From NCBI GenBank assembly GCA_041494705.1, contig JBGQBI010000002.1, positions 90,001 through 122,000 on the forward strand: a stretch of 32,000 nt of DNA. The letters run 5' to 3'. The stretch comes from Candidatus Methanoperedens sp. (GTDB lineage: Archaea; Halobacteriota; Methanosarcinia; Methanosarcinales; Methanoperedenaceae). Both the position numbers and the translations under genes were made by a program. Below the pieces are notes generated by a model, which worked only from the letters and a program-made list of their open reading frames with translations, was not told the origin of the DNA and ran no database searches. Position 1 is the first letter of the stretch; every line of letters starts with the position of its first letter. Shown here piece by piece: positions 7,115 to 25,246 of this stretch.

Positions 7115-7155
7115 TTCTCCCAAGAATCTATATAGACTATATAAAATCAGTAAAT
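7115..7155. promoter_or_regulatory. Copy a of a recurrent 38-41 nt intergenic motif, upstream of pstS
   Basis: ttctcccaagaatctatatagactatataaaatcagtaaat. It is 38/41 identical to 19576-19616. It lies 47 nt upstream of the pstS ATG, with a second A/T box (7101-7114) between it and the start. Confidence 0.6.
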
Positions 7156-7205
7156 TATGTTCAAGAGATGTTTAGAGAATATGTAAAACTTAAACCTTAT
7201 TGAAC

Positions 7206-8087
7206 TCATGCGATAGCCGGTTCAATAGAATACGTTATTGCAGGAGGCATTAAACCTGACCTTAAACTGCAAAATTCTCTGATTTGTGCAAGGCTTTTAA
7301 GGGTATGGTCTCTTGTTGAGTTTTTAACTTCCAGGATCAAATTTCTTGTGTTTGTCTTTGATATGTTTTTAAATACTTCCCTGAAGTTTATTTTTCCAAG
7401 CCCCAGGGGAAGGTGGCGGTCTCCAAAAAGTGCTTCTTCAGACTCCAGAATTCCGAAGTTATCATGAAGATGCATCTGATGTATGTAGCCACCTAACTCA
7501 AAATAATCTTCCAGGGATAACCCGTATGCATTGGAGGCGATAAACGCATGACCTATATCCAGATTGATTTTTAAATTTTCAGAATCTACCATTTCAATTA
7601 TATGGTATATTTCCCCGGGGAACACACCAATTTTATTTCCCCCCTCCCTATCAAACAGGTTCTCTAAAAGAAGGGTGACGCCATATTCTTCGGCGAGGGT
7701 ACAGAGATGAATTAAATTACGTAAATTCGAATTAAGACACTTTTTTGAGCCGCTTTGCGAACCAGGATGAACAACTATGTATTCCGCTCCTATTTTTGCA
7801 GCAATCTCGATTACTTTTCCCATAACAATAAAATTTTTTTCATTATTAGTTGAAAAATCGATCTTTAGTCCTTCAATCCTGGAATCAATGTGCGGGGCAT
7901 GGATAGTAAATTCTGTGCCAAAAGATGAGGCAAGATATGCAGCCTTTGACAATAGTTCTTTTTCCTTTTGTTTGTCTAAAAAATCCACCCTGTCAAGACC
8001 AAGTTCAATAATTTCCACTTCACATGGATCTATGGCTCCTCCAAAATCTTTTATCTGAGGAGAGTTTATGCCTGTTTTTGTATTCAT
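7206..8087 (-). CDS. Sugar phosphate isomerase/epimerase-like protein (xylose isomerase-like TIM barrel family)
   Basis: 293 aa. By-eye metal-ligand pattern of the AP-endonuclease-2/xylose-isomerase-like TIM barrel family (IHAPH, VVHPG, LLLENL, DIGHA, HLHDN). Confidence 0.7.
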   Translation of the reverse strand: MNTKTGINSPQIKDFGGAIDPCEVEIIELGLDRVDFLDKQKEKELLSKAAYLASSFGTEFTIHAPHIDSRIEGLKIDFSTNNEKNFIVMGKVIEIAAKIGAEYIVVHPGSQSGSKKCLNSNLRNLIHLCTLAEEYGVTLLLENLFDREGGNKIGVFPGEIYHIIEMVDSENLKINLDIGHAFIASNAYGLSLEDYFELGGYIHQMHLHDNFGILESEEALFGDRHLPLGLGKINFREVFKNISKTNTRNLILEVKNSTRDHTLKSLAQIREFCSLRSGLMPPAITYSIEPAIA

Positions 8088-8122
8088 ATAGTATAGTTTT
8101 ACCCTAAATATTATATATTTTA

Positions 8123-8162
8123 TCTCAATAATCCATATATACTAAATAAAATCAGTATAAAT
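8123..8162. promoter_or_regulatory. Copy b of the recurrent intergenic motif, upstream of the isomerase-like gene
   Basis: tctcaataatccatatatactaaataaaatcagtataaat. It shares CAAnAATC(T/C)ATATA...ATAAAATCAGTA with copies a, c and d. It lies 36 nt upstream of ATG 8087. Confidence 0.55.
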
Positions 8163-8189
8163 ATGTCATCAAAAGAATTGTAACCACCT

Positions 8190-8597
8190 TCAAACCTTCT
8201 CCGGCGAGTACCTGACAGCCAGCACCCTTATCACTCCAAGCACAAACAACAGAGCTGAGAGGGCGAAAATAGTTTCGAATCCCAACGATTTGGAATAAAG
8301 CCCGACAGTGACCTCACGCATAGCTATTAAAATCGTGACGTCGGTTATGTCGGTGAGCTTGATTCTTTCATGTTTGGAATAGTCTGCAAAGGTCTTGAAG
8401 AACTCAATCACAATAAAAAGCGTGAGAACGTTAGTAACTATTTTGTTAAAACCGCCATCAAGTGAGTCTATCGCCACAGTGCGAATATCAAGTAATATCC
8501 GCAGCATTCCTGCAATGAGAGCCAACAACAGTACATACAGGACGATGGTAATAATGGAATCAGTAATTTTTTTGAAAAATTTTGGATGGTCAATCAT
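8190..8597 (-). CDS. PsiE-like (phosphate-starvation-inducible E family) small membrane protein
   Basis: 135 aa with 4 predicted TM helices. Length and layout resemble E. coli PsiE (136 aa), including a central LFIVIEFFKTF segment versus YFLYFEFIALIVKYF. This is a by-eye comparison only. Confidence 0.5.
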   Translation of the reverse strand: MIDHPKFFKKITDSIITIVLYVLLLALIAGMLRILLDIRTVAIDSLDGGFNKIVTNVLTLFIVIEFFKTFADYSKHERIKLTDITDVTILIAMREVTVGLYSKSLGFETIFALSALLFVLGVIRVLAVRYSPEKV

Positions 8598-8677
8598 TTA
8601 AATACCATCATCAGAGCGAGTAAGATAAGAAGCGCCATCAGAAAATATTCAATTTTATTGAAGCTGTTCATTTTCAT
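8594..8677 (-). CDS. 27-aa hydrophobic micro-ORF, translationally coupled on both sides
   Basis: My translation is MKMNSFNKIEYFLMALLILLALMMVFK. Its ATG overlaps the TGA of the 63-aa ORF (ATGA), and its TGA overlaps the ATG of the psiE-like gene (ATGA). It is below the ORF-track size cutoff. Confidence 0.3.
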   Translation of the reverse strand: MKMNSFNKIEYFLMALLILLALMMVFK

Positions 8678-8865: not shown

Positions 8866-8871
8866 AATGCC

Positions 8872-9006
8872 TCATTTGGCAGCGAATCCGCCGCGCATAA
8901 ATAAGTACAACTCCCTGTCTTCCTGCCTCATATTCAAAAGCTCCTCTTCGACCGGGTTGTATGTAATTGAGAGCGTTTTTCTCATAATTTGCTTATTTTC
9001 ATTCAT
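8872..9006 (-). CDS. Hypothetical 44-aa protein (first ORF of the psiE-like operon)
   Basis: My translation is MNENKQIMRKTLSITYNPVEEELLNMRQEDRELYLFMRGGFAAK. It ends 6 nt before the next ATG. Motif copy c lies 45 nt upstream. Possibly ribbon-helix-helix-like, but that is a guess. Confidence 0.25.
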   Translation of the reverse strand: MNENKQIMRKTLSITYNPVEEELLNMRQEDRELYLFMRGGFAAK

Positions 9007-9050
9007 TTCTATCACCAGATTGATAAATTCATTCAAAAGATATATAATTT

Positions 9051-9090: not shown

Positions 9091-9127
9091 ATGCCTTTCT
9101 TTCAACTGATGTTGGCGTCGATAGCTA

Positions 9128-11709: not shown

Positions 11710-12468
11710 CTATATACCCAGTATAGAATAGATAAAATCGCCATAGAATGCAGCCGCGAAAAACCCTACTGTTATGGAAATCATAAACGGCAAGCCGGGG
11801 GTCACCCAGACCTCATCTTTAATTATACCCAGTTCTTCCAGATTCTTAAGCTCTTTGATTGTTTTCTCGTTAATTTCCACGCCGCCCGGCTTGAAACGGA
11901 ATTGATTCTTACCATCTGCCACTTCAAAATCCTGGATTAACCTGATATGTTTATTTGCAAGCTCTGAAATTTTAGTTTTATAACCTATGAAAATATATAC
12001 GGGATTATCAATATGCCAGCCCATTTTCGTTATATTAAATACTGCTAACCCGATGGGGACAATAATCGTCAACAGGGCTGCGTTGCCAAATACGCTGAGT
12101 GTGAAAATATCATACAGAGGTTTATTCAATGGAAGGGCATAGCCGAATGCCTGGAACGCCGGATAGGCAGGAAGGATTATCGACAGGACGATAAGAGATT
12201 TAGCGTCAGCCCCGCCGAATAAACCTAATTGAAAAGTGACATACACAAGCATGAACATGAATCCTGCCGAGATGAATAAGGTAAGGAGATATGATATGCC
12301 GTACTTTGAGGTATCATAAAGGATAAAAAAAATGCTGCCAGCAAGCATTACCAGCCACACTTTGTTGGTTACGCTGCGCTTTTTAATATCCGAATAACAT
12401 GCGTAAAGCAGAAACGGCGTGCAGAATAAAATCTTTAAAATATCGAGCATGCTCTTTTCCAGGGTCAA
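11710..12468 (-). CDS. Archaeal prepilin/preflagellin peptidase (peptidase family A24, FlaK/PibD/EppA-like)
   Basis: 252-aa polytopic protein with the two A24 aspartate motifs (CYSDIKKR and FGGADAKS) and a soluble insertion before the last TM helices. Confidence 0.85.
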   Translation of the reverse strand: MTLEKSMLDILKILFCTPFLLYACYSDIKKRSVTNKVWLVMLAGSIFFILYDTSKYGISYLLTLFISAGFMFMLVYVTFQLGLFGGADAKSLIVLSIILPAYPAFQAFGYALPLNKPLYDIFTLSVFGNAALLTIIVPIGLAVFNITKMGWHIDNPVYIFIGYKTKISELANKHIRLIQDFEVADGKNQFRFKPGGVEINEKTIKELKNLEELGIIKDEVWVTPGLPFMISITVGFFAAAFYGDFIYSILGI

Positions 12469-12475
12469 ATAAATT

Positions 12476-12658
12476 TTATTGTTTACAGACAGGAACCTTC
12501 GCTATAATCCTGGTTTCAGGAACCCTGTCCCACCTGTTGAAACTGCTGATATAAAGTATATCCTCATTGCGGCTCCTTTCGATAAACTGGACATCTCCTT
12601 CCTGGATTTCACCAGTTTCGAGTTTGAATTTTACTATGTCTCCTGTAGAATATTCCAT
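12476..12658 (-). CDS. Hypothetical 60-aa protein
   Basis: ORF-track entry 7 nt upstream of the peptidase gene on the same strand. No family recognised. Confidence 0.3.
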   Translation of the reverse strand: MEYSTGDIVKFKLETGEIQEGDVQFIERSRNEDILYISSFNRWDRVPETRIIAKVPVCKQ

Positions 12659-12696
12659 AAATCACCGTCATTCGTTTTTATCTGATGGCTGAATTG

Positions 12697-12732
12697 AAAA
12701 AAAAAAAGTATTATGAGGATTGCTCCTCATAA
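12697..12732 (-). terminator. Hairpin plus T11 terminator downstream of the pilin-PstS1 gene
   Basis: On the minus strand, TTATGAGGA-GCAA-TCCTCATAA (9-bp perfect stem, 12711-12732) is followed after 3 nt by eleven T (12697-12707). It begins 15 nt after the stop at 12747. Confidence 0.7.
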
Positions 12733-12746
12733 TTGAGTTTGTTTAT

Positions 12747-13862
12747 TTAAGGTCTGAAGAATCCTGTCTGCTCTACGATGGTCTGCCCGTCGTTGCTCAG
12801 TACATAGTCAAAGAATGCCTTCTCTGCGCCTGTCGGGACTCCCTGGCTGTAGTAGTAGAGGTCGCGTGCAAGTCCTTTGCCACTTACAGTGGTTACAGTC
12901 CTGCTTGCTGCATCGTAGGTATTAGCGCCTATACCCTTGGTGGTCTTGCTTGCCACAGTGCCATTCATCGAGGCTGCAATGTCAGCGGCGTTTCCATTAA
13001 CTCCGCCTGCTGCAAAGCCAACATCAACGAAGCCGATCGAATTTTTATTTGCTGCAATGTAGTCTCTTACTCCCTGGTTGCCCTGTGCCCCGGTTGCAGA
13101 TGAACCTGTTAGCTGTTTGGATGTAGTATCTTGCATACCAATCCATGCTGCAAAGGTATCTTCTGTTCCTGAGTCATCTGAGCGCTGGACTGTCGTTATA
13201 TTTTTTGCAAAAGTTCCAAGTTTAGTTCCATCTATTGCACCACTTACATACCCAGCTTTCAAATCAACGAAACTTATGTTAAGGATATAATTGGTTGGAT
13301 CATAGGCGGAAGTATTGCCGGGGATAATGTTTATTGCTTTAACATTATTAGTTCCATCGTTCAAATACCCTGCAAGTACAATCATGCCTGTTCCGATTTT
13401 TGTCTCATAGAGGAACGCATTGGCTCCTGCTGCCTGTATAACTGCACTCCCTCTGCCGTCGTACGATAAGCCTGTGGTTGTGTCTGTTGATGTACTATCC
13501 GGCCAGATGTCGGAGCTTGCTCCTACATCAACCTGTTTGTTGAAGACAAGCGCCCTGCCTGTTCCTGAGCCGCCGCCGCCGAGATGGATTGTTACTGATG
13601 GATACAGCTTTTCGAACGCTGCGATTTCAGCCTGTGTTATGGGTAATACTGTAGTACTGCCTTTGATTGCGAAATCTCCTGATACGTCAAGATGCTGACT
13701 TCCCACCTGACCTTCTGTATTCTTCTGCGCATTCTGGACAATCATGCCAATGCCCGCTGCTGCCACTGCTGCAATCACGATTAAAATCAGTGTTGCAATA
13801 GCAGGGGAAATGGCTTTAGAGTCCTGAAGGAATGCTTTTATTCCTTTAGTATTTATTCTCAT
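12747..13862 (-). CDS. PstS-family (PBP_like_2) phosphate-binding protein with archaeal class III (pilin-type) signal peptide
   Basis: I prefer ATG 13862 (GGAGG 7 nt upstream) over the ORF-track start 13931. N-terminus: MRINTKGIKAFLQDSKA|ISPAIATLILIVIAAVAAAG. The body carries PstS-type signatures GSTTVLP, GGGGSGTG, VGASSD, VQRSDDSGTED. Confidence 0.8.
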   Translation of the reverse strand: MRINTKGIKAFLQDSKAISPAIATLILIVIAAVAAAGIGMIVQNAQKNTEGQVGSQHLDVSGDFAIKGSTTVLPITQAEIAAFEKLYPSVTIHLGGGGSGTGRALVFNKQVDVGASSDIWPDSTSTDTTTGLSYDGRGSAVIQAAGANAFLYETKIGTGMIVLAGYLNDGTNNVKAINIIPGNTSAYDPTNYILNISFVDLKAGYVSGAIDGTKLGTFAKNITTVQRSDDSGTEDTFAAWIGMQDTTSKQLTGSSATGAQGNQGVRDYIAANKNSIGFVDVGFAAGGVNGNAADIAASMNGTVASKTTKGIGANTYDAASRTVTTVSGKGLARDLYYYSQGVPTGAEKAFFDYVLSNDGQTIVEQTGFFRP

Positions 13863-13965
13863 TTCTATCCTCCAATTTTTGGTTCGGTGACGCCCACCGG
13901 TATTGCCCAATGTATTATCATCTATCTTCAAATCGAAGTTTGGCGGACACGGATTTATAGCATCA

Positions 13966-14516
13966 CCAGATTACCTTAATTTCATAAACTATTTCAGGAT
14001 AAGCCTCATAAACTATAGAGAGTAATATAGTCTATTTTTATTCTTCAAAACAATGAAACCGGTGCCCTCCGGTTGGGGTCTCGAAGGGGCTGGGGGCACC
14101 GATTCATGGTTAATGAAGCCCTGCACCAGGGTAAAAAAAGTGAGATATGTTAAGGGCTTCATGTTTCTCCTACGGGTTGTGATTTAGCGGCGTGTGTATA
14201 GGCCGCCAGATTACTCTAATATCAGAAACTATTTCAGGATAATCCTCATAAACTATATAGAGCCATATAGTCTATTTTTTATTCTACGGGAGATGAAACC
14301 GGTGCCCATGATAGGTTCTTGAAGGCGGTTGTTGGGGCACCGTTTCATGGTTAATGAAGCCCTGCACTGAGGAAAAAAAGTACGAGATATTATGGGCTTC
14401 ATATTTCTCCTCTGTTTTTGGGCTCATCTGCTGTTTGAGCCACGGCCTATCCTAATATCAGGAACTATTTCAGGATAATCCTCATAAACTATATAGAGCC
14501 ATGTAGTCTATTTTTG
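13966..14516. repeat. Tandem repeat, period 240 bp, 2.3 copies (A 13966-14205, B 14206-14445, partial C 14446-14516)
   Basis: Each unit starts with a promoter-like A/T segment of about 64 nt (ctaatatcagRaactatttcaggataatcctcataaactatatagagccatRtagtctattttt). Copies B and C differ at 2 positions there. Copies A and B then carry two conserved inverted repeats: atgaaaccggtgccc...gggcaccgWttcat and atgaagccc...gggcttcat. Confidence 0.85.
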
Positions 14517-14565
14517 AAACTTTTTAATTTTTTCTGGGTAAATGAATCCAGATAAGGATAATCGA

Positions 14566-14635
14566 CCACAGAGCACACAGAGAGCACAGAGAATTGCCTC
14601 TTTTCTCTGTGTCCTCTGTGCTCTCTGTGGTTTTT
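14566..14635 (+). terminator. 28-bp imperfect hairpin built from CACAGAG-type units, followed by T5 (terminator-like on the plus strand)
   Basis: The left arm is ccacagagcacacagagagcacagagaa (14566-14593) and the right arm is ttctctgtgtcctctgtgctctctgtgg (14603-14630). They pair at 24 Watson-Crick positions plus 1 G-T out of 28. tttttc follows at 14631. Confidence 0.4.
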
Positions 14636-14683
14636 CAAACCAGAAGATAATAAAAAGTCTCCTATTTTTATCATGGGGAATAA

Positions 14684-14857
14684 TCAAACAGCACTCTTTT
14701 TGTGTGCAAGAAAAATCACGCCAAGCGCGCCCATTACGGGAAAAACTGCAAAAACCGCAGCCGGAAGATAATTTGATGGGGAATACCATGATACTGAAAC
14801 GGCGCTGTACAGTGCAAGAACCAAAAGCACAAGTGCACCCGCAAATTCGTTTCGCAT
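14684..14857 (-). CDS. Hypothetical 57-aa two-TM membrane peptide
   Basis: My translation is MRNEFAGALVLLVLALYSAVSVSWYSPSNYLPAAVFAVFPVMGALGVIFLAHKKSAV. It is below the ORF-track cutoff and has two clear hydrophobic helices. Confidence 0.3.
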   Translation of the reverse strand: MRNEFAGALVLLVLALYSAVSVSWYSPSNYLPAAVFAVFPVMGALGVIFLAHKKSAV

Positions 14858-15215
14858 AACATGATTTGGTTAAATCGCAAGATAAAGCCTTTCACTATAG
14901 AAACAATAGAGGTATAGAGAACATTATCCTTCTTTCAGCACCATATTCACGCAGAAAACGGTCAAATTGTGAGTTCTATCAAGTCTGCGTCAGTTCTGTA
15001 AGTCTGTAATAAATCGTCTGATATTAAAAAGGGGTTTTTAGTTTATTAAACTCACTGTGATAGATTCTTAAACCAAAGATACCAGGCATACACTACAACT
15101 AATATCGCAGCTATTATGAATACATAAACCCAAAAAATGATATTTTCAATCATTGAACCCTGTTACGATAACCTGAGGATAAATAAGGACTGAGTTTCTT
15201 CTTGATAAATAAAAA

Positions 15216-15467
15216 TCACTGAGCACCAACATTTTTCTTGTGCTCTGTTTGGCTGGCATTCTGAATTAAGGTAATCCACTTATTCTCACCTGCTTTGATT
15301 CTGCCAGCTTCGGCAGGGGTCTCATAATCAAATAATGACCGTTGATATTTGGGGATGGATTTTTTATGAGATTCGTATAAAATTCTGTGCCAGATAAGAT
15401 ATGTTTTTATTTCGTTCATTATGTCAAATAATTTACTAATACGTTTTTTTAACATATTTTCACCCAA
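15216..15467 (-). CDS. Hypothetical 83-aa protein
   Basis: ORF-track entry only. No family recognised. Confidence 0.25.
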   Translation of the reverse strand: MGENMLKKRISKLFDIMNEIKTYLIWHRILYESHKKSIPKYQRSLFDYETPAEAGRIKAGENKWITLIQNASQTEHKKNVGAQ

Positions 15468-15557
15468 CCATTTAAATCATAAAATGATATATAAAAGTAA
15501 TCTGTAGTGAGTATTGTTTCTATTGAGAATGTGATACATGAACAAAACGCCAAAGAG

Positions 15558-15992: not shown

Positions 15993-16040
15993 TAAGTATT
16001 ATAGATTCACAAGTATATAAAATTAGTTAAACAAGTATAT

Positions 16041-16994
16041 CTAATTAAATTCCCTCGTATAGCTTATGTATCCATTCTTCTCTATAATATCCTGTCCTTC
16101 AAATGACCTCGCCCACTTTATGAAGGAATCCACAAGTGAGGGATTACCTCTGGTTACAAAGTAGAGCGGATGGGCAAGCTCTAAGGGATAATAGGAATTG
16201 TTCACGTCACTGCTGGCGGCTGCCACCGTAAAATTGGAGTGGCTCATGTTTGTATATGTTACCCCGCTGTCTTCATTATAGAGATTTGCTATATTCACGC
16301 TCTGTCCACGTTTATCCTGGGAATCAACATAACCGTATTCTATAAATCCTATAGAACCGGGCATATTTTTCACAGCATCAAGCATCCCGGCGCTGCCTGT
16401 AACCGCAGTAATGCTTGAGTTGATTGAAGTATTTCCGATATACTGCAAAAATGCTCTCTCTGTGCCTGGAGAACCTGTCATTTGATATGCTGTGCATGTC
16501 TTATTTGTGTCATCGTAGCATCCTCGTAGTGTACTTTTACTAAAGTTGCCGACCGGGCCATTGACTATAATCACAATTCCCGAAGTGCCAAGCTTTTGAG
16601 CAACGAGGTCCGGGTATTTTCCCATCTCATCCGGAGAAGGCAATCTATCTGTGACTCCTATATCTGCTATGCCGGTACCCACCTCACCAATGGAAACATT
16701 CGAAGTCATATTCAATGCCGCACTCGCTTGTAACTGGAGCATCACGCCGAGACTTTTATCATTATAAGCATTCACCAGAGGTAAAATGGCAGGGTAGGCA
16801 AGGTCTGAACTTATGATATTTATCTTTATAGATGTACGATCTGCACTGTTACTCTTGCCTGCTACCTTATCGGTCTGGGAGTTCATATTCTGCATCATGC
16901 CAGAGAGAAATGTCACGCTTCCAGCCACCACCATGATAAGCATCAGAGAGGCGACCACCGGGGATACTGCATTTGTGTCTTTAATAATCTTCAT
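16041..16994 (-). CDS. Divergent PstS/PBP_like_2-fold protein with class III (pilin-type) signal peptide
   Basis: 317 aa. N-terminus: MKIIKDTNA|VSPVVASLMLIMVVAG. The body aligns by eye to the PBP_like_2 layout (IADIGVTDRLPSPDEM, GIVIIVNG, TGSPGTERAFLQYIG, IGFIEYGYV). The canonical GST/GSGxG anion-binding motifs are replaced (ISSDLAYP, QASAAL). Confidence 0.7.
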   Translation of the reverse strand: MKIIKDTNAVSPVVASLMLIMVVAGSVTFLSGMMQNMNSQTDKVAGKSNSADRTSIKINIISSDLAYPAILPLVNAYNDKSLGVMLQLQASAALNMTSNVSIGEVGTGIADIGVTDRLPSPDEMGKYPDLVAQKLGTSGIVIIVNGPVGNFSKSTLRGCYDDTNKTCTAYQMTGSPGTERAFLQYIGNTSINSSITAVTGSAGMLDAVKNMPGSIGFIEYGYVDSQDKRGQSVNIANLYNEDSGVTYTNMSHSNFTVAAASSDVNNSYYPLELAHPLYFVTRGNPSLVDSFIKWARSFEGQDIIEKNGYISYTREFN

Positions 16995-17103
16995 ATGCTT
17001 TTCTGTGTATTTTTTTCTCTGATATAACTTATCTATATAGATTATAGGGTATTCTATACCAGGACGCAGCCAGCAGCGCTAAGAGATAAAACATGGAAGC
17101 TGC

Positions 17104-18474
17104 TCAGTCACCTCCCGAATAGGCGGGCATGTTGCCGGTAGCCGTTTGTCCTGACGTCTTCCCTGAGAGCCCCAATATTTTCAGGAGTTTCGTTGGAAGG
17201 TTTTTCAGTTCTGCCATTAGCGATTCGTAGAACGCTGGCGTGTCAGAAGTATTTTTGGATTTTTCGATTGGGGGAGCGGGAGAAGTCTCAGCAGGGGCGA
17301 TATGAACTTCCGTGGGAACAGCCTTTGCAAATGTTATCTGTACAGGATTTGATATGCCTGAACCTGTAATAGCTTGCGTTTTTCCTTCGGGGTCGTAGCA
17401 TGACCTGTACTCATCAAATGTGAAGTTAGCCGGAGGCAGTGAGATATTACCAGATAGATTATTTATTTTTAATACATAACTCTGATTATAAGACGTCTCT
17501 GGTTGCAGGACAATGCTGAAATTCCGATCACCGCGAAGCATCTCCATACCAGGAACAAAAGAATCCCATACTTTTACCGAAGCTGCCCTGCTCCCGTTGT
17601 TTTTTACGCTCAAGTTTATCGTAACATTGCCTTCCTTCTCCATATCAACGGTTTTTGATAAAATAATATCAGAAGAGCGTAAAATGAAACTTAGATTGCC
17701 GGTGGATAAATTATATGTTTTATTATACCTGCCTATGTAAAGCATTGCAGGTGGCAGGCTGTATTCCGCTCCCGCGACTGGCTTAAGAGGCTTGATTTTA
17801 TAGGCGGTCTGCCACATCTCACCGCTGTGCAGGGATATGCTCCACTTCAAATCATGTGGTTCTGATACAAAACCGTCTCCAACACTGTCTCCCACCCCGA
17901 TATTCGAAAAATTTAAATTTCCAATGCTTTCAACAGTTATTGTAATAGGGATGAACTGGTTGCAAGGATTTATATTAGCCTCTGCGGGCACGGTCTTGGT
18001 GATCGTCAGGTTTTTTGCAATATCAAAATCACTTTCATTCATTTTTATCAGTATTTTAAGCTCTGCATAAGGCGTGGGTATGTGATAACCTGTGACAACA
18101 TCCTGCGCAATTATCCTGAGTGAGCTTTCATCATCTTCATATGAGGTTTCATTAAAAAAATCGGCGCCGTCGATGGTAATGTTTTTCTCTGCTAACACAG
18201 CGTCCAGTATATGATTACTATCCTTGTATATCTTTAAAAATACCCAGTCATCACACCCAAAAATTCGCCTATTAACGCCATCGGTTTCAGTTTTACATTT
18301 TTCTGGATTTTCTTCTACGGTTCCGGGCCTGAAATCCACCGCTGTTATATTATAATTGTAAAAACTGACGCTTTCACCCCAATTGAGACGTACATCATGT
18401 TCTTCCCAGTCAGATGCCGCTCCTGCCACTGCCAATATATTCAGCCCGATAATAAGCAACAGAATAGCCCTCAT
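17104..18474 (-). CDS. Secreted, sequon-rich cell-surface protein (beta-sandwich/CARDB- or DUF11-like segment)
   Basis: I prefer ATG 18474 (MRAILLLIIGLNILAVAGAAS..., Sec-type signal peptide). The ORF-track start 18552 would overlap the upstream gene. About 18 N-x-S/T sequons by eye. The segment ILSKTVDMEKEGNVTINLSVKNNGSRAASVKVWDSFVPG looks CARDB/DUF11-like. Confidence 0.65.
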   Translation of the reverse strand: MRAILLLIIGLNILAVAGAASDWEEHDVRLNWGESVSFYNYNITAVDFRPGTVEENPEKCKTETDGVNRRIFGCDDWVFLKIYKDSNHILDAVLAEKNITIDGADFFNETSYEDDESSLRIIAQDVVTGYHIPTPYAELKILIKMNESDFDIAKNLTITKTVPAEANINPCNQFIPITITVESIGNLNFSNIGVGDSVGDGFVSEPHDLKWSISLHSGEMWQTAYKIKPLKPVAGAEYSLPPAMLYIGRYNKTYNLSTGNLSFILRSSDIILSKTVDMEKEGNVTINLSVKNNGSRAASVKVWDSFVPGMEMLRGDRNFSIVLQPETSYNQSYVLKINNLSGNISLPPANFTFDEYRSCYDPEGKTQAITGSGISNPVQITFAKAVPTEVHIAPAETSPAPPIEKSKNTSDTPAFYESLMAELKNLPTKLLKILGLSGKTSGQTATGNMPAYSGGD

Positions 18475-18529
18475 TGTCTGAAAATAGAATAAAGCCCTAT
18501 TAGGTTTTTTTGTATATAGTGTATATAAT

Positions 18530-19540
18530 CTATATACTTTTAGAGAAGTCAATGGCTAACTCAGCGATGTTTGCAGCATAATCCCCGATTCTTTTCACGC
18601 TGTCTGCTATGAGCCCTAAGGACATGACAGCGTCAGGACTTAAAGTGGTTGCCTGGTTTCTGACTATATGCAAATCCTCGCCTATTTTTTTATGTTCTTC
18701 AATAACCCTGTTTGCAAGCTCTACATTGCATTTTGTAAAAGAAACAACCGAATCATTGACGAGTTTATGTGATATGGTACAAATCTTAACGATCTCATCG
18801 AGCATGCCTTGAGGAATTTTTTCACCTGATTCCAGTATTATACCGGCGATCTTACCCGCATGGTCTGACATACGCTCTAAATGGTCGCTTGCCAGCCTGT
18901 AGTAGAAGGCTCCTATCAACCCCAGTTCACTCTTTTCTGATATCCTTGAATGGAGTAAAATATCCATGAACTGTTTTGATATCAATAGATGGAGGCGGTC
19001 AATCTCATCATCCTGCCTTACGACTTCAGAGGCAATGGAAACTTCCTTCGTTTTCATTGCCTTGATGGTGTTGTCAAGCATCCACTGCACTTTTATATGC
19101 ATGCGCCGAAAGCTCATATCGATAGGCATATCTCCCGGATTCAAGATATCCTGAATAACTATTCTCTCGTGCGTTTCATCGATGATTTCAATGCCTATCA
19201 ATTTTTTGACGATAGCTGTTATATCTTTTTTCTGCTCATGTGTGATATTTTTGGCTTTAAGTTCAATCACACGATACCCGGCAACGTAGGTGGCTATTAT
19301 ATCTCTTATCAGCGGCTCGCCCACCCTTCCATCTATGGTTAAGGTCTTTGGACCCTGAGGCGCAAAACTGCCGTTTGAAGTTAAAAGAAGAGTACCATCC
19401 TCCTGCGGATGCATGTGAACAAGGGAACCGGCGGTTATCCCGGTACTGACAGCCCATTTCTTGGGAAGAGAGACGACATATGTCGATTTCCCTGTTATCT
19501 GGACTTTTCTTATTTCTGCGTTTGTCTTTTTAATTTTCAT
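18530..19540 (-). CDS. AbrB/SpoVT-domain plus PhoU-domain transcriptional regulator (paralog 1)
   Basis: 336 aa. The N-terminal looped-hinge-helix-type segment is RKVQITGKSTYVVSLPKKWAVSTGITAGSLVHMH. The C-terminal part has two PhoU repeats (DDEIDRLH...LERMSDHAGKIA and IGEDLH...VKRIGDYAANIAE). Confidence 0.85.
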   Translation of the reverse strand: MKIKKTNAEIRKVQITGKSTYVVSLPKKWAVSTGITAGSLVHMHPQEDGTLLLTSNGSFAPQGPKTLTIDGRVGEPLIRDIIATYVAGYRVIELKAKNITHEQKKDITAIVKKLIGIEIIDETHERIVIQDILNPGDMPIDMSFRRMHIKVQWMLDNTIKAMKTKEVSIASEVVRQDDEIDRLHLLISKQFMDILLHSRISEKSELGLIGAFYYRLASDHLERMSDHAGKIAGIILESGEKIPQGMLDEIVKICTISHKLVNDSVVSFTKCNVELANRVIEEHKKIGEDLHIVRNQATTLSPDAVMSLGLIADSVKRIGDYAANIAELAIDFSKSI

Positions 19541-19575
19541 ATCTCTACATAGTTTTTCCGATGAGGATATATATG

Positions 19576-19616
19576 TTCTCCCAAGAATCTATATAATATA
19601 TATAAAATCAGTAAAT
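19576..19616. promoter_or_regulatory. Copy d of the recurrent intergenic motif, upstream of AbrB-PhoU paralog 1
   Basis: ttctcccaagaatctatataatatatataaaatcagtaaat. It is 38/41 identical to the pstS copy and lies 36 nt upstream of ATG 19540. Confidence 0.6.
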
Positions 19617-19648
19617 CCTGTTTTAATTTTATTATTTTGAAAAAAATA

Positions 19649-19669
19649 GTCTATATTTTCTATATAGAC
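19649..19669. promoter_or_regulatory. Inverted repeat GTCTATAT-N5-ATATAGAC in the promoter region of the secretion ATPase operon
   Basis: gtctatat tttct atatagac, about 40-60 nt upstream of ATG 19708. It contains a TATA-like CTATATAG and shares ATATAGAC with the pstS motif copy. Confidence 0.45.
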
Positions 19670-19707
19670 AAATTATTAATTTAATTCACACATTTCACAC
19701 ACTTAGA

Positions 19708-21519
19708 ATGAAAACATTGATTGAAGGCTTTAATCTTGGCAGTTTATCTCATTATCCAAAACGCATTGGCGGGTATCTTTCTCCAAGCCGCATAAAAGGT
19801 TATCCAAAACTCATTGGTGGGTATCTTTTTCCAGGCCGCATCATAGATGGAAATGGCAACGGGAATAAACAGAATGGGAATGATGGGCTTGAAGTGCATC
19901 TTAAGCAACTTGAGGAACAAATACTGGGCAGGCGGGAGGAGAGTAAACAAAATATCATGGACATACTTCACTCCTTCAAAGAAAAACCCATCCGTGAATT
20001 AAACATAACCTATCCGATCAACCCGCCTTACCAGTTTGTCCAAATCGCGTTTGATAGTGATACCGAAGAACTCCTGTACATGCCGCTTGAGCCTGTTCTT
20101 GACAAAGCAGAGAAGGAACTCTTCCAGAGAATAAAAGGTATCTTTGAGAAAGAGTTGAATAGGGAGAGCTTGCAGGCTAACCAACAGATATACATCGAAA
20201 AGAGGGCAGCAGAAATTATTGACACATACAGCATAAACGCAGGCAAGACTGCCCTGGATAAAGCGCTTTATTTTCTCAAGAGGGATTTCATCGGTTATGG
20301 TGAGATAGACCTGCTGATGAACGACCCCATGATAGAAGATATAAGCTGCAATGGCCCCGGCAGACCTATTTACTTGTATCACCGCGTCTTTGAATCCCTG
20401 CGGACAAAGATGAAGTTTGAAAGCGAATACAGGTTAAATTCTTTTATATTAAAGATGGCGCAAATTTCAGGGAGGCATATATCGGTGCTTGACCCCATAA
20501 CAGACGCCACCTTACCTGACGGCAGCAGGGTTAACCTCACCTACAGCAACGAAGTGACCAGGAAAGGCTCATCCTTCACTATCCGGCGGTTCAAGAGCGA
20601 GCCTATCTCCTTTATAGATATAATGAAATACGGTACCTTAAATGCTAAGCAGCTTGCCTACCTGTGGTTGCTGGTGGAGTACGGCAAGTCAATACTGGTC
20701 TCGGGCGGCACCGCCTCAGGGAAAACAACACTATTAAACGGCATCTGCCTTTTCATAAAACCCGAGGCAAAGATTGTGAGCCTCGAAGATACAGCAGAGA
20801 TAAATATACCCCACGATAACTGGATACAATCCATAACAAGGAGCGGTTTTGGAAGGGGGGAGGGGTCTTCCAAACGCGGGGATATCGGTCTATATGAACT
20901 GTTAACCGCAGCACTGCGGCAGCGTCCAGAGTACATAATAGTTGGAGAAGTCAGGGGGGCAGAGGCAAGCACACTCTTTCAGGCAATCTCAGTCGGTCAT
21001 GCCGCTATGGGTACAATACATGCAAGCTCCGTGGAAGAACTCATTAATCGCATTGAATCACCGCCTATGAACGTTCCTCGCAGCCAGCTTGCAAGTCTTG
21101 ATCTTGCGATATTTATAAACAGAATCCGTATTAACAACAGCTATGCCAGGCGGATTGTGAACATGGTGGAGATACATGGGATTGATTCCGGGACAAAGAA
21201 TCTCGTCACGAATAATGTTTTCCATTGGGATCCTTTTAGCGACTCTTTCAACTACAAAGGCAAAAGCTCTCTCCTGGAAGATATAGCCAGTGAACACGGA
21301 ATCAAACTTGAATACTTAGAGAAGGAGATGGAACTGAGGGAGAAGGTGATTGAGTGGATGTCCAGACAGGGAATTATCCATTACAGGGATGTGGCAAAAA
21401 CCCTCAAGGCATATTACAATTCTCCTGATGAACTCATGAAAAAAATAATAATTCTAAAAGAAGTAATGCCAAAAAAAGCACGCAAGCCGAGGGCCTTAAA
21501 GTCTGGTAAAAAACGCTAA
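19708..21519 (+). CDS. FlaI/PilB/GspE-family type IV pilus-like secretion ATPase
   Basis: 603 aa. Walker A GGTASGKTTLLNG, Asp box/Walker B RQRPEYIIVGEVRGAEA, His box TIHASS. It also has the archaeal N-terminal domain pattern YPINPPYQFVQI...YMPLEPVL. An alternative internal start is ATG 19957. Confidence 0.9.
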   Translation: MKTLIEGFNLGSLSHYPKRIGGYLSPSRIKGYPKLIGGYLFPGRIIDGNGNGNKQNGNDGLEVHLKQLEEQILGRREESKQNIMDILHSFKEKPIRELNITYPINPPYQFVQIAFDSDTEELLYMPLEPVLDKAEKELFQRIKGIFEKELNRESLQANQQIYIEKRAAEIIDTYSINAGKTALDKALYFLKRDFIGYGEIDLLMNDPMIEDISCNGPGRPIYLYHRVFESLRTKMKFESEYRLNSFILKMAQISGRHISVLDPITDATLPDGSRVNLTYSNEVTRKGSSFTIRRFKSEPISFIDIMKYGTLNAKQLAYLWLLVEYGKSILVSGGTASGKTTLLNGICLFIKPEAKIVSLEDTAEINIPHDNWIQSITRSGFGRGEGSSKRGDIGLYELLTAALRQRPEYIIVGEVRGAEASTLFQAISVGHAAMGTIHASSVEELINRIESPPMNVPRSQLASLDLAIFINRIRINNSYARRIVNMVEIHGIDSGTKNLVTNNVFHWDPFSDSFNYKGKSSLLEDIASEHGIKLEYLEKEMELREKVIEWMSRQGIIHYRDVAKTLKAYYNSPDELMKKIIILKEVMPKKARKPRALKSGKKR

Positions 21520-21522
21520 ACT

Positions 21523-22383
21523 ATGAATACATTATACAAGAAGTTATGCTACCGCATGGTGGGGAGATACATAGAAGGAAGCAGCCTGGAAACTGAATTC
21601 TCAACGCTCCTTTACCAGGCAGAAATTAAAATGAGCGGAAACATGTTTCTCTCAGTCTTGTTAACAAGTTCTCTCATACTATCCCTCGCCGTCGGAGGTG
21701 TTTTTTACATTCTTTCCATCGAACTGGTTCCTCCTCTTTTTGCTGCTCTACTGGCTTTTGCCGCCCCCGCAGGGGTTATTTATTTCCAGCTCACCTCAAA
21801 AATCCAGAACAGGCGTCTTGCCATTGACAGCAATCTACCTTTTGCTATCAGCCATATGTCTATACTGGCATCGATAGGGACAACACCCCTGAATCTCTTG
21901 CGTATGGTTGCTTCTGCCGACCACGGCGAAGTTTCAGCCGAGCTAAAAAAAATTCTCTATTCTGTGGATACGCTGGGCAAGGATGTTATAGCTGCTGTCC
22001 TGGAAGTTGCAAGAACTACCCCTTCTCCGCACATGCGCTCCCTGCTCATAGAAATTACAAGGATGATACACACTGGCGGCGGCATGGAAGCATACCTGCA
22101 CAACAGGCTTGACCAGCTCCTGGAAATAAAACGGCAGGTGCAAAAAGAACTCAACCAGTCCCTTGCCCTCTTCAGCGAGATGTATATTACATTCATAAGC
22201 ACGGGTGTTATTATGGCCGTGCTTGGTGTAACTGTGGGGAGCATTCTCATGGGAGGGAAGATAGGACCGTTCCAGGCAAGCGATCTCTTTAGCATATTCG
22301 TATATTTTATTATGCCTGTAACAAATGTTCTATTCTTTGTACTTCTGATGATGGTATATTCGCCTCACGGGGAGCAGAAATGA
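21523..22383 (+). CDS. T2SS-F domain membrane platform protein (FlaJ/TadB-like), first half-size gene
   Basis: 286 aa. It has N-terminal TM helices, then a cytoplasmic helical domain, then C-terminal TM helices. It starts 3 nt after the ATPase stop. Confidence 0.75.
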   Translation: MNTLYKKLCYRMVGRYIEGSSLETEFSTLLYQAEIKMSGNMFLSVLLTSSLILSLAVGGVFYILSIELVPPLFAALLAFAAPAGVIYFQLTSKIQNRRLAIDSNLPFAISHMSILASIGTTPLNLLRMVASADHGEVSAELKKILYSVDTLGKDVIAAVLEVARTTPSPHMRSLLIEITRMIHTGGGMEAYLHNRLDQLLEIKRQVQKELNQSLALFSEMYITFISTGVIMAVLGVTVGSILMGGKIGPFQASDLFSIFVYFIMPVTNVLFFVLLMMVYSPHGEQK

Positions 22384-23363
22384 GAGATTTAAAAAAAATA
22401 TATAACAAATATAACTTAAAAAGAGAACACATTATCCTGCTGCTTCCGGCATTGATAGCAGTAATCTTAATCGTGATTAGCATACTCCCTGCTGTACTCC
22501 CTGCAGGACAGGAAAAACAAGAATATATTTACACACCAGTAGAAGGCAACACAACAGATGTAGTACCAATCACAAATGATCATGGGGTGCCCAAAAATCT
22601 TGACCAGATTATAGTATTTGCTGTCTTGATAGCGATAACGCCTTACAGCATAGAGGTTTATCTTATCAAGAAAAGGACAACGAGATACGAGGAGGAGTAT
22701 ATCGGCTTTCTATACGAGTTCTCTGAACTCCTGCGCGGCGGTCTTGACCCTCTGGGCGCTATAAAGGAGATTGCTTCTCCCGCTTTAGAGACAGAACGCA
22801 GTCTGCAAGCCCTCAGTCCTCACTTAAAAAAAGCTGCAGCACAGATAGAGTGGGGCGTTTCTTTTGAAACGGTTATTGCCAGCATGGCAGAGTCCCTGAA
22901 AAGCCCGCTGCTTAGCAAATATAGCAAACTCATCGTCCAGGCATCGAGACTTGGTGCAATGAGCCCGGCTATCATTCTAAAATGTGCAGATGATCTTGAA
23001 AAAACCCTCCAACTGGAGCATGAAAAGGAAGCTGCCCTAAAGGAATACCTTTTCATAATCTATGCAGCACAATTCATCCTTATCGGCTTGATATTTCTCC
23101 TTAACACCACTCTTCTTCCTTCAGTCCTCAGCATGTTTGGGACGGGAGTGGGGGGGAAAGGTTCACCTCTTGGCATCGCGGCTCCTTCAATAAGTCTTGC
23201 CGGCTTTAAGACCGGTTTTTTCCATGTGATAATGATTAACGCCTTCGCAAGTGGCATCATCGCAGGACAGCTCACTGCGGGTAAGGCGAGGCATGGATTA
23301 AGCCATTCGGTTATATTGATTTTAATAAGCTATACCGCCAGCCTTACATTTCTGCTGAAGTAA
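22380..23363 (+). CDS. T2SS-F domain membrane platform protein (FlaJ/TadC-like), second half-size gene
   Basis: 327 aa with the same TM-soluble-TM layout. ATGA overlap with the previous gene. Confidence 0.7.
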   Translation: MRDLKKIYNKYNLKREHIILLLPALIAVILIVISILPAVLPAGQEKQEYIYTPVEGNTTDVVPITNDHGVPKNLDQIIVFAVLIAITPYSIEVYLIKKRTTRYEEEYIGFLYEFSELLRGGLDPLGAIKEIASPALETERSLQALSPHLKKAAAQIEWGVSFETVIASMAESLKSPLLSKYSKLIVQASRLGAMSPAIILKCADDLEKTLQLEHEKEAALKEYLFIIYAAQFILIGLIFLLNTTLLPSVLSMFGTGVGGKGSPLGIAAPSISLAGFKTGFFHVIMINAFASGIIAGQLTAGKARHGLSHSVILILISYTASLTFLLK

Positions 23364-23370
23364 TAAAAAA

Positions 23371-24231
23371 TTATTTACAACTTTTCGCAATTATAGGCAT
23401 ACCGGCATTGCATGCCTTGGATAAGGCATCATCCATGTTTTTAAGCAGCGCCCTTGGATTCCCGTGGACTTTTGAATTTAAGCTGTATACAAACTCTCTG
23501 GTGAAAGGAAAAAGGAAGTCCATATTCTGAACAGACCTGCTTACTGCGAGCCTCTTTGCGACCAGAAGCTCGGCTTCTTTATCCTCAAGTCCATCCAGCA
23601 TATAAAGCTTGTTTATCCGCTCTATGAAAGAAGGATTTGTTTCCCGGATGCCTTTGAAAATTTCTTTATTGCAGGTAAAACAGAGCAAGCTTCCAGCCTT
23701 CAGGTTGTTCACAAGGGCGGTGAGGAATTCCATGAAATTATTATCCCCGCAATCAATGTTGTCCAGCAAAATATAGGATGGTTTCTGCTCTTTTAGCATC
23801 ATTGATGCCAGTATCCCAAGCTCGACTGGCTCTTTTTTCTGTTTTAATGATTTTTTTATTTCTTTAACATATTGAGGAGGCCGAAGCCTCCCCATAAAAC
23901 CCATCTTACCATATATCTGTTTCAGCCCGCTATCGAATAAACTCTTTATATTCAATGCGTAGTTGCGCTCAACACCTAAAAAAATATGGAAAATACCGCT
24001 TTTAACTGCTACCTCCTCAAGCCATCGCAGCCTCTGGGTTTTTCCAATACCCAGTTCTCCTACAAAAGCCACCACAGCCCTTCCTCCCTCCGATAACTCC
24101 CCAACTATACCTGCCAATTCACTGTCCATCTTCTGGTTCACATGCAATAAGTAGATACCCCCTATCGCCTCAGCCGATACCTCCCGAAAAGGATTCGAAT
24201 TCAAACCATATAGCTTATATTCATTCGTCAT
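23371..24231 (-). CDS. ExeA/GspA-like AAA (AAA_22-type) P-loop ATPase
   Basis: 286 aa. The N-terminal YGLNSNPF is followed by Walker A GELGIGKTQ, Walker B YILLDNID and a C-terminal GNPRALL. This arrangement is reminiscent of ExeA/ORC-type ATPases. By eye. Confidence 0.55.
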   Translation of the reverse strand: MTNEYKLYGLNSNPFREVSAEAIGGIYLLHVNQKMDSELAGIVGELSEGGRAVVAFVGELGIGKTQRLRWLEEVAVKSGIFHIFLGVERNYALNIKSLFDSGLKQIYGKMGFMGRLRPPQYVKEIKKSLKQKKEPVELGILASMMLKEQKPSYILLDNIDCGDNNFMEFLTALVNNLKAGSLLCFTCNKEIFKGIRETNPSFIERINKLYMLDGLEDKEAELLVAKRLAVSRSVQNMDFLFPFTREFVYSLNSKVHGNPRALLKNMDDALSKACNAGMPIIAKSCK

Positions 24232-24387
24232 CTTCGTATCTCTGCCATATTTATACCGTTCTTCTCTACTGAAATGCTATCATGCAGGAGCTTTTAGAAC
24301 GGTTAATTAATTAACCCCTATAGTCTAAATACATCTATATACTCTATAATAGGATGCTTTATTGGGTCGAAGGGAAAAAAGTAACGT

Positions 24388-25146
24388 GTGAAGCTGCTTG
24401 AAGATGAGTCCGGGCTATCTGTAATAGTTGGAACACTGCTGTTGATACTTATCGTGGTAGCTTCGGCATCTGCCCTTGCTCTCATGGTGAACGAAGCACA
24501 GAAAAAAGAGATGGAGCAGAGGAGCCTTCGCGCTGCTGTGGAAAGTGAGAACTTAAAGATTCTTTCGTTGGCTCTCAATGATTCGGATGGCGACGGATAC
24601 TGGAATACCATGATGATAACTGTTGTGAATCTGAATACCGAGGAATCACGGATTGTTAGCGTCAATATTAATGACATGAATGCAGCAAACTACACAGATG
24701 AAGTAAAATTATACAATTTCCAGAACCAATTCCCTGTACCATCCGCAAGAAGCAGGCAGATATTCTTGAACCTTACCTCCAACTTTACCTCCCGTCTTAA
24801 CATTTCCAAGAATGATCCCATCCGGGTAATCCTGTTTACCAGCCTGACAAACAATTTTGAGCGTGTCTTTCTACCACCTGTGCCCATCATAAAAGTGAAT
24901 GTTGGATCTGAACAAATTGGAGCGTTCTATGATGTGCTCACCCTGGACGGTTCGGATTCTTTTGACCGTGAAGGCACGATTATCAAATACCAGTGGTTGG
25001 TCAGCAATGGCACAATTCTGGGCACTCCAAGCGGACAGAAAGCGAGGATGAATTTCAACCTGAGCAACACAGGTAAGTTCCAGGTCAACCTTAACGTGAC
25101 AGACAGCAACGGGATGTTGGGTTCTACCGGTTGGGAATCTCCATAA
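24388..25146 (+). CDS. Pilin-like protein (class III signal peptide) with C-terminal PKD domain
   Basis: GTG start. N-terminus: MKLLEDESG|LSVIVGTLLLILIVVASASALA. The C-terminal LTLDGSDSFDREGTIIKYQW...GKFQVNLNVTDSNG matches the PKD-domain pattern. Confidence 0.7.
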   Translation: MKLLEDESGLSVIVGTLLLILIVVASASALALMVNEAQKKEMEQRSLRAAVESENLKILSLALNDSDGDGYWNTMMITVVNLNTEESRIVSVNINDMNAANYTDEVKLYNFQNQFPVPSARSRQIFLNLTSNFTSRLNISKNDPIRVILFTSLTNNFERVFLPPVPIIKVNVGSEQIGAFYDVLTLDGSDSFDREGTIIKYQWLVSNGTILGTPSGQKARMNFNLSNTGKFQVNLNVTDSNGMLGSTGWESP

Positions 25147-25206
25147 AATCAGACCTGCAAATCTCCTTTATTTTCGATGATTCTAATTATAAAAGGTATA
25201 CATTTC

Positions 25207-25246
25207 ATTCCAAATAATCTATATATACTATAAAATATCAGTAGAT
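25207..25246. promoter_or_regulatory. Copy e of the recurrent intergenic motif, abutting the start of AbrB-PhoU paralog 2
   Basis: attccaaataatctatatatactataaaatatcagtagat. It has the same plus-strand orientation as copies a-d, but here the adjacent gene is on the plus strand. It has a 2-nt insertion in the AAAATCAGTA arm. Confidence 0.55.

Follow-up and report, generated by a model that had tools for sequence, protein, structure and literature searches.

We analysed a 32,000-nucleotide stretch of a Candidatus Methanoperedens genome (contig JBGQBI010000002.1, positions 90,001 to 122,000; hereafter the window) and found that five of its intergenic regions carry a copy of the same 31-nt element, upstream of the pst operon, a TIM-barrel gene, a psiE operon and the two genes for AbrB-PhoU proteins. 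We consider it fairly probable that this element is the Pho box of the Methanoperedenaceae, i.e., the 31-bp operator of a small phosphate-starvation regulon, through which AbrB-PhoU proteins would combine activation from upstream with autorepression of AbrB-PhoU2. As a cis element the box is well supported: motif, specificity, phasing, direction and conservation are all observed. The five copies in the window are the following (L-type, regulated gene to the left of the box; R-type, to the right).

7122..7152, plus strand: copy 1, L-type, upstream of the pstSCAB-phoU operon; an exact match to the pattern, 72.6 bits
8127..8157, plus strand: copy 2, L-type, upstream of the TIM-barrel (AP_endonuc_2) gene at 7206-8087; 66.9 bits
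9056..9086, plus strand: copy 3, L-type, upstream of an operon of small open reading frames (ORFs) and psiE; 70.2 bits
19583..19613, plus strand: copy 4, L-type, upstream of AbrB-PhoU1 (18530-19540); 65.1 bits
25213..25243, plus strand: copy 5, R-type, overlapping the predicted core promoter of AbrB-PhoU2 (most likely ATG at 25258)

The core box reads AAKAATMYATAKA-NNN-TA-NNNNNN-ATCAGTA (in shorthand, AAKAATCYATATA-N3-TA-N6-ATCAGTA), and the five window copies are of equal length. An earlier reading made from the sequence alone (the sequence-only reading) had placed five copies at these sites, all on the plus strand, with 38 of 41 positions identical between the pstS copy and the AbrB-PhoU1 copy, and inspection of the sequence bears this out. 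Its variable spacer of 5-7 nt is not needed, as the copies align without a gap when anchored on the invariant ATCAGTA and the spacer length is fixed. The common strand follows from gene orientation: the four leftward genes face the CAAG end of the box and the single rightward gene faces the ATCAGTA end. A stricter sub-pattern matches three times in the window, against 0.00 matches expected from 100 dinucleotide shuffles. With a first weight matrix, built from the five window copies, these score 51-60 bits and shuffled windows never rise above about 15 bits. A later matrix, built from 97 unique sites from relatives, gives the five copies 27-73 bits and finds nothing of at least 8 bits in the rest of the 32 kb window. 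The box occurs at only five sites among about 35 genes.

A scan of one genome per species (185,579 species) with the pattern AAKAATMYATAKANNNTANNNNNNATCAGTA returned 107 instances on 81 stretches from 46 assemblies. Nearly all of them (104) lie in 43 Methanoperedenaceae-type assemblies, at 1-7 per genome; the other three are singletons, each on a contig that is clearly bacterial, and we regard them as chance matches. The ORFs flanking every instance on both sides were classed by BLASTP, and 101 of the 104 archaeal instances adjoin phosphate-linked families, namely pstS, small-ORF/psiE, TIM-barrel, PhoU_div-Pit, AbrB-PhoU1 and AbrB-PhoU2. The left-side gene is the small ORF leading a psiE operon at 31 sites, pstS at 26, AbrB-PhoU1 at 12, the TIM-barrel gene at 7, PhoU_div followed by a Pit/PHO4 transporter at 7, and a second PstS type at 5. 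The distance between the box and the TIM-barrel gene is 39 nt in 7 + 7 other genomes or contigs (genome and metagenome sets). Metagenomes contributed a further 114 instances, 93 of which adjoin the same families; by eye, the remainder are mostly contig ends or chance matches lacking an archaeal flank. A relaxed matrix search of 621 kb of related DNA uncovered 20 more near-exact sites, against none in a reversed-sequence control, and 18 of these precede the same families, an alkaline phosphatase gene or a gene for an HTH_45 protein; two are unassigned.

The sequence-only reading had held that the motif marks a phosphate regulon, and had named a generic promoter or a dispersed repeat (miniature inverted-repeat transposable element, MITE) as the outcome that would count against this. 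The genome and metagenome counts support the regulon. With few gene families flanked and 1-7 copies in each genome, the box is not a generic promoter, and it is not a dispersed repeat either. In viral contigs (IMG/VR), a looser pattern gave only 14 singleton, chance-like matches, and a viral or mobile origin was rejected on this basis. Two contigs assigned to bacterial metagenome-assembled genomes have pstS or the small ORF after a box of the Methanoperedens type (L072, JAHIHE010000163.1, 'Patescibacteria'; L100, NZ_JBAZQQ010000023.1, 'Pedobacter'); these are evidently mis-binned archaeal contigs.

Conservation was also evaluated in loci from four related species (L003, L005, L007 and L009) that were fetched through the AbrB-PhoU1 protein, independently of the motif. 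The five-copy matrix finds strong boxes at every orthologous position in all four loci: before AbrB-PhoU1, AbrB-PhoU2, the small-ORF/psiE operon, the TIM-barrel gene and pstS. Weaker boxes occur before an alkaline phosphatase gene and an HTH_45 gene. These variants (L007, 14992-15032; L009, 11983-12023) end in ATCAATA or have no ATCAGTA (AATCTATATAATCTATATAAT...), which suggests that they belong to lower-affinity regulon members missed by the strict pattern. Comparative footprinting, proposed in the sequence-only reading as a check, reveals that the box, a B recognition element (BRE) and a TATA box form one conserved block upstream of pstS and AbrB-PhoU1, with the nearly invariant arrangement TACTGATTTT-TATAG-N-TATAGATTCTTGGGA-AA-TATATA. 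At AbrB-PhoU1 the block stands as an island, and the more distal upstream DNA cannot be aligned; at pstS the sequence stays conserved as far as the start codon.

Internally the box is asymmetric. Two related 8-mers, AATCTATA and AATCAGTA, form direct repeats 20 bp (two helical turns) apart that have 5-6 of 8 positions in common, and between them lie two CTATAKA units 9 bp apart. Of the pstS sites, 43% have a complete 7-bp dyad, TCTATAG-N3-CTATAGA, as against 0-9% of the sites in other classes; compensatory changes are absent, and a search of Rfam gave no match to the box. The conserved module runs leftward from the core via TC(C)C and TTT to a TATATA exactly 8 nt away. On the strand of the regulated gene it reads TACTGATTTT-N-TATAG-N-ATMTATAGATTCTT, GGGA-N-AAA, TATATA, 25-40 nt and the start codon. 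The following promoter elements were located in the window.

7107..7112, minus strand: predicted TATA box of the pstS promoter, preceded on the gene strand by the BRE-like GGGAGAAG
7077-7082, minus strand: GGTGAT Shine-Dalgarno sequence of pstS, after its TATA box
8112-8117: TATATA of copy 2, 8 nt from the core
9041-9046: TATATA of copy 3, 8 nt from the core
19568-19573: TATATA of copy 4, 8 nt from the core
25197-25202: degenerate left TATA of copy 5 (TATACA, with a 1-nt insertion)

Archaeal promoters have a TATA box with a purine-rich BRE just before it, and transcription starts about 26 nt past the TATA centre. By these rules, we infer that TATATA is the TATA box and GA-N-AAA the BRE, and the box should span about -35 to -70. 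The gap between box and TATATA is 8 bp in all gene classes, with the BRE-like GA-N-AAA before TATATA, so that the box adjoins the BRE with about 1-2 bp to spare. Positions -15 to -10 are information-rich in all classes, and the pstS-promoter TATA is invariant in the pstS-upstream alignment. Information content to the right of the box is about 0 at pstS, small-ORF and TIM-barrel sites. The orientation is never reversed: left-side genes face the CAAG/AATC end, and AbrB-PhoU2 alone faces the ATCAGTA end. L-type start codons lie 36-54 nt from the box, and that of PhoU_div about 100-130 nt. The predicted 5' leaders would be absent or very short for the TIM-barrel gene and AbrB-PhoU1, about 8-12 nt for the small ORF if a conserved internal ATG is its start, about 14 nt for pstS (beginning at the GGTGAT Shine-Dalgarno sequence), and long for PhoU_div.

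These measurements agree with much of what the sequence-only reading had described. It had put the end of the element 36-47 nt upstream of the ATG of the four minus-strand genes (we measured 35-49 nt) and had noted a separate ATATAT-type box between element and start, which in all four copies is a TATATA exactly 8 nt from the core. The position that it proposed for an upstream site recurs across species, the box lying upstream of BRE and TATA for pstS, the psiE operon, the TIM-barrel gene, PhoU_div and AbrB-PhoU1. The conserved module is longer than it had described, since BRE and TATA box are included in it.

The fifth copy is arranged differently. It had been described as abutting AbrB-PhoU2 and overlapping its core promoter, and this placement is conserved across species: the AbrB-PhoU2 ATG lies 13-18 nt past ATCAGTA at 30 genome sites, and at one further site a TTG is called as the start, 5 nt away. 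In the window, the conserved ATG at 25258 is the most likely start of AbrB-PhoU2, rather than the TTG at 25246; it follows the box by 14 nt, and in the relatives the ATG is always 13-18 nt past ATCAGTA. With so short a distance, the predicted TATA box and transcription start of AbrB-PhoU2 must be within or at the edge of the box. This side has a TATAAAATATCAGTAG specific to the class, and a GGAG or GAT resembling a Shine-Dalgarno sequence precedes the ATG by 5-9 nt. In 16 genomes, a single box is located between a divergent small ORF and AbrB-PhoU2. Comparison of window positions 25150-25212 with three relatives (L102, L085 and L066) reveals that the 3' end of a PKD-domain gene now occupies the place of the left-side small ORF, which the closest relatives retain. 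A change to TATACA and one inserted nucleotide have degraded the left TATATA, but neither the box nor the AbrB-PhoU2 side differs from those of the relatives. Copy 5, having lost its left gene, is a natural experiment on the direction of the box.

The likely candidates for binding the box are the two AbrB-PhoU proteins, because, with few exceptions, the genomes have a box at both of their genes, as is typical of an autoregulated factor, and because they are the only proteins with DNA-binding domains among the regulon families identified. In AbrB-PhoU2, Pfam identifies MazE/AbrB (PF04014, 1.4e-8, above cutoff) and PhoU (PF01895, 2.1e-25); in AbrB-PhoU1, PhoU is found at 8.4e-27 and MazE/AbrB weakly, below threshold (4.5e-4). 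The PhoU domain is matched by PF01895 in two stretches. The two proteins are paralogues, 30% identical over their full length, and share an N-terminal motif of the AbrB/MazE type, RKVxxxGxSTYVxSLPKKW. Named close relatives of AbrB-PhoU1 (72-97% identity) all come from Candidatus Methanoperedens or Methanoperedenaceae, and the next, at about 46%, from the anaerobic methanotrophic (ANME) lineages ANME-1 and ANME-2c and from Methanococcoides; these identities place the window in a Methanoperedens genome of the ANME-2d lineage. An AlphaFold (AF2) model of AbrB-PhoU2 (predicted local distance difference test score, pLDDT, 86) consists of a small N-terminal beta domain, a middle domain and, at the C-terminus, a bundle of six helices. 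The last 205 residues adopt the PhoU fold, with a template-modelling (TM) score of 0.82 to Aquifex PhoU 1t72 (Foldseek). The middle domain (residues 56-125, window 25423-25632) has a beta-alpha-beta-alpha-beta-beta topology and weak Foldseek matches to Alba-type structures (1udv and 8xap; TM about 0.65 on the target, E about 0.3-0.5); from this model, it could be a second nucleic-acid-binding module. A sequence search of solved structures found stand-alone PhoU proteins only and no AbrB-PhoU fusion.

Archaeal activators bind upstream of the BRE, and repressors bind over or after the TATA box. We infer the binder of the box, the sign of regulation and the signal from sequence, and propose the following mechanism. 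At low phosphate, an AbrB-PhoU oligomer would occupy both repeats on one face of the DNA, with the N-terminal AbrB-type domain binding DNA and the C-terminal PhoU domain acting as the sensor, either directly or via the Pst transporter like bacterial PhoU. At L-type promoters, the complex would sit just upstream of the BRE in fixed phase and aid loading of TFB and TBP, turning the uptake genes on. At the AbrB-PhoU2 promoter, the same complex would cover the TATA box and start site and block TBP and TFB, giving negative autoregulation, while AbrB-PhoU1 would be co-induced with the regulon. Where a small ORF and AbrB-PhoU2 diverge, one box would activate and repress together.

Several points weigh against this mechanism. 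AbrB-type domains are usually loose in sequence specificity, which fits a sharp motif poorly. Nothing of at least 8 bits was found in the AbrB-PhoU loci of the ANME-2c 'Methanogaster' (L106) or of Methanococcoides burtonii (L107). The genome-wide specificity of the box is that seen in assemblies of other species, and the strict pattern used for collection would miss weak sites before unrelated genes. The box itself is BRE/TATA-like (AAGAAT-CTATATAT), and a rightward core-promoter role at every site is possible. This last point can be taken further, to a box that is only a conserved rightward core promoter (BRE AAGAAT, TATA CTATATAT and ATCAGTA close to the start site) adjoining the leftward one in divergent orientation. 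Such a promoter would transcribe AbrB-PhoU2 at one site and produce antisense or non-coding RNAs elsewhere, with no dedicated factor. The left half of the box does resemble a BRE followed by a TATA box, and at AbrB-PhoU2 the box must contain the promoter, given the nearby ATG and the Shine-Dalgarno-like sequence before it. We nevertheless find this improbable, as the DNA right of the box is unconserved at pstS, small-ORF and TIM-barrel sites, a generic promoter would not be limited to phosphate genes, and no other promoter in the window is similar. Less credible still, and in our view scarcely conceivable, is a dispersed repeat, a MITE, a recombination site, or an RNA or cruciform hairpin. The box is short, AT-rich, multi-copy and partly palindromic, with the dyad present at many pstS sites. 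Against such an origin, there are few copies per genome, always at orthologous promoters, and viral contigs hold nothing beyond chance. A MITE or dispersed repeat is effectively refuted by copy number and context, and a hairpin or cruciform was rejected on the grounds that the dyad is not conserved outside part of the pstS sites, shows no compensatory changes, and has no Rfam match.

Two further alternatives retain the phosphate-regulon operator. One of them, which we hold to be rather unlikely, is that a different transcription factor binds it, AbrB-PhoU proteins being merely regulated members or signal modulators. Bacterial PhoU is known to work through protein contacts and not through DNA, the AbrB match of AbrB-PhoU1 is below the Pfam threshold, small HTH_45 genes occur in the same neighbourhoods of L007 and L009, and our searches of the open literature found no binding study, report of DNA binding or defined operator for an AbrB-PhoU protein. 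However, the HTH_45 genes are not consistently beside boxes, whereas both AbrB-PhoU genes bear one in nearly all genomes, as autoregulated factors do, and no other family identified in the regulon has a DNA-binding domain. In addition, the Thermococcus kodakarensis homologue TK2245 is listed among chromosome-associated proteins (PMC7325993). The other alternative is a repressor operator at every site, where a regulator would block TFB and TBP at the adjacent BRE under phosphate-replete conditions without any activation. The near-contact of box and BRE would allow this, TATA-like repeats within the box could trap TBP, and many archaeal regulators are repressors. Yet in Archaea a repressor site is normally found over or past the TATA box, which is the case here only at AbrB-PhoU2, and the strict 8-bp phasing to TATA fits a stereospecific recruiting contact better. 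Haloarchaeal pho-boxes are also described, in a secondary account, as needed for induction (PMC6560208). We thus judge pure repression unlikely and favour upstream activation with autorepression of AbrB-PhoU2.

Pfam and NCBIfam searches of the window ORFs provide the gene map below; pstC, pstA and pstB were assigned from ORF sizes and annotated syntenic loci. No response regulator or histidine kinase is present among the Pfam matches of the window ORFs scanned.

First gene of the map: kdpA
2739..7068, minus strand: pstS-pstC-pstA-pstB-phoU operon, which copy 1 would drive (pstS and phoU by Pfam)
5953-7068, minus strand: pstS
7206-8087, minus strand: xylose-isomerase-like TIM-barrel (AP_endonuc_2) gene, phosphoesterase-like, downstream of copy 2
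8190-8597, minus strand: psiE (Pfam PF06146), preceded by two small ORFs
8872..9006, minus strand: conserved 44-aa small ORF, the first gene after copy 3, followed by a 63-aa ORF and then psiE
Between the psiE region and the prepilin peptidase: glycosyltransferase-like gene, PHP hydrolase and low-molecular-weight phosphatase
11710-12468: prepilin peptidase, in a type-IV-pilus-like cluster around AbrB-PhoU1
12747-13931: PstS-family protein with an N-terminus ('...DSKAISPAIATLILIVIAAVAAAG') like an archaeal pilin (class III) signal peptide
16041-16994: PstS-family protein with an N-terminus ('MKIIKDTNAVSPVVASLMLIMVVAGS') like an archaeal pilin (class III) signal peptide
17104-18552: DUF11-like protein, overlapped by AbrB-PhoU1
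18530..19540, minus strand: AbrB-PhoU1, with an L-type box; first gene of an operon with the DUF11-like protein and a PstS-like pilin
19708-23363, plus strand: PilB-like (T2SSE) ATPase and two PilC-like membrane platform genes
Between the platform genes and AbrB-PhoU2: PKD protein gene
25258..26280, plus strand: AbrB-PhoU2, with an R-type box

The small ORF is the commonest gene directly downstream of the box and is often divergent from AbrB-PhoU2. Its family comprises 31 members by all-against-all BLASTP and 43 metagenome homologues, all of 44-50 aa and ending in EDRELYLF(L/M)RGGFxAK, and has no Pfam or NCBIfam match.

A type-IV-pilus-like cluster (window 11710-23363) is wrapped around AbrB-PhoU1, and the same linkage is seen in L007 and eight other contigs. 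Box 4 probably drives the AbrB-PhoU1/pilin-type operon, because AbrB-PhoU1 overlaps the gene for the DUF11-like protein. On the other side, 94 nt separate box 4 from the start of the T2SSE ATPase gene to its right (78-127 nt in five genomes). A perfect palindrome, GTCTATA-N9-TATAGAC, lies in between (19649-19671, before the T2SSE start at 19708) and may serve the pilus-like operon as promoter or operator; in the relatives, the DNA on the right of box 4 is poorly conserved. As predicted from its genes, the AbrB-PhoU1-linked cluster resembles a phosphate-specific 'bindosome'. We tentatively suggest that the box and the two AbrB-PhoU paralogues could form a one-component archaeal counterpart of PhoR/PhoB, a two-regulator feedback switch with AbrB-PhoU2 turned off and AbrB-PhoU1 turned on, which might also drive a phosphate-starvation 'bindosome' of PstS-like pilin-type proteins via the dedicated type-IV-pilus machinery beside AbrB-PhoU1.

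Other features of the window include three direct repeats of about 240 nt at 13966-14680, 81-89% identical over a 74-nt core, each holding a CTATATAGAG...ATATAGTCTATTTTT segment. The 1.6 kb gap that holds them, between the genes for a PstS-like pilin and a 144-aa membrane protein, has no convincing ORFs. The same non-coding gap contains a 29-nt inverted repeat of CACAGAG-type units (14564-14631; 86% complementary, 9-nt loop). Just past AbrB-PhoU2 is a tRNA gene (26540-26640, plus strand), whose length of 101 nt, compared with the 71 positions of the Rfam model, makes an intron probable.

To our knowledge, Archaea lack PhoR/PhoB, and phosphate sensing and response in this domain are largely unresolved; AbrB-domain PhoU proteins have already been suspected of a part in the response. 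The box provides a 31-bp target and a regulon of about 6-8 operons in which position predicts activation or autorepression, so that phosphate sensing in Archaea becomes open to direct testing in a methane oxidiser of environmental importance. It can also serve as a marker of phosphate-starvation genes in Methanoperedens metagenomes and metatranscriptomes and, together with its promoter, is a candidate phosphate-responsive module for archaeal genetics. In the literature searched, we found no archaeal AbrB-PhoU operator and no pho box of Methanoperedens or of any methanogen.

Among known systems, the bacterial Pho box of PhoB/PhoP (CTGTCAT-N4-CTGTCAT in E. coli) is similar in having direct repeats on one helix face that adjoin the core promoters of pst and phosphatase genes, and in defining a phosphate-starvation regulon that includes the regulator's own gene. 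The box described here does not belong to the PhoB type, since repeat, spacing and promoter type all differ: there is no sequence likeness, the repeats are AATCWRTA, they are spaced by 20 bp instead of 11 bp, and they adjoin an archaeal BRE and TATA box rather than -35 and -10 elements. The presumed binder is likewise a one-component AbrB-PhoU fusion and not a winged-helix response regulator phosphorylated by PhoR. Within Archaea, the motifs of TrmBL1/Tgr (the TGM motif), SurR and Ptr2 activate when upstream of BRE and TATA and repress when over or after the TATA box. This positional logic matches the L-type/R-type split, for which the outcome is predicted from position; the protein families and motifs are unrelated.

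The AbrB-PhoU proteins themselves belong to both of the families from which they are named. Membership in the SpoVT/AbrB family follows from the above-cutoff PF04014 match of AbrB-PhoU2, to which the N-terminus of AbrB-PhoU1 aligns, and membership in the PhoU family from the PF01895 matches in two stretches and from the likeness of the AF2 model to 1t72. As in bacterial AbrB/SpoVT proteins, an N-terminal swapped-hairpin AbrB domain is combined with a C-terminal sensor or oligomerisation domain (AbrB plus GAF in SpoVT). AbrB-PhoU differs in having a complete PhoU domain as its sensor and an extra alpha/beta domain in the middle, and its presumed target is a sharp 31-bp box, whereas AbrB targets are loose and AT-rich.

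The closest parallel is the haloarchaeal pho-box of the pst1 and pst2 promoters of Halobacterium salinarum, also a cis element at promoters of phosphate ABC transporters. According to a secondary description, H. salinarum is without a PhoR/PhoB system, and its pho-boxes are essential for induction on phosphate starvation, which is attributed to PhoU-type regulators (PMC6560208, citing Furtwangler 2010). The two are likened through that description only, and differ in lineage at the phylum level and presumably in sequence. In contrast to what is described there, the box of the Methanoperedenaceae also precedes both regulator genes, occupies both presumed activating and promoter-overlapping positions, and recurs in more than 40 species. 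Functionally it is a Pho box, of the same kind, as far as description allows the comparison, as the haloarchaeal pho-box already known.

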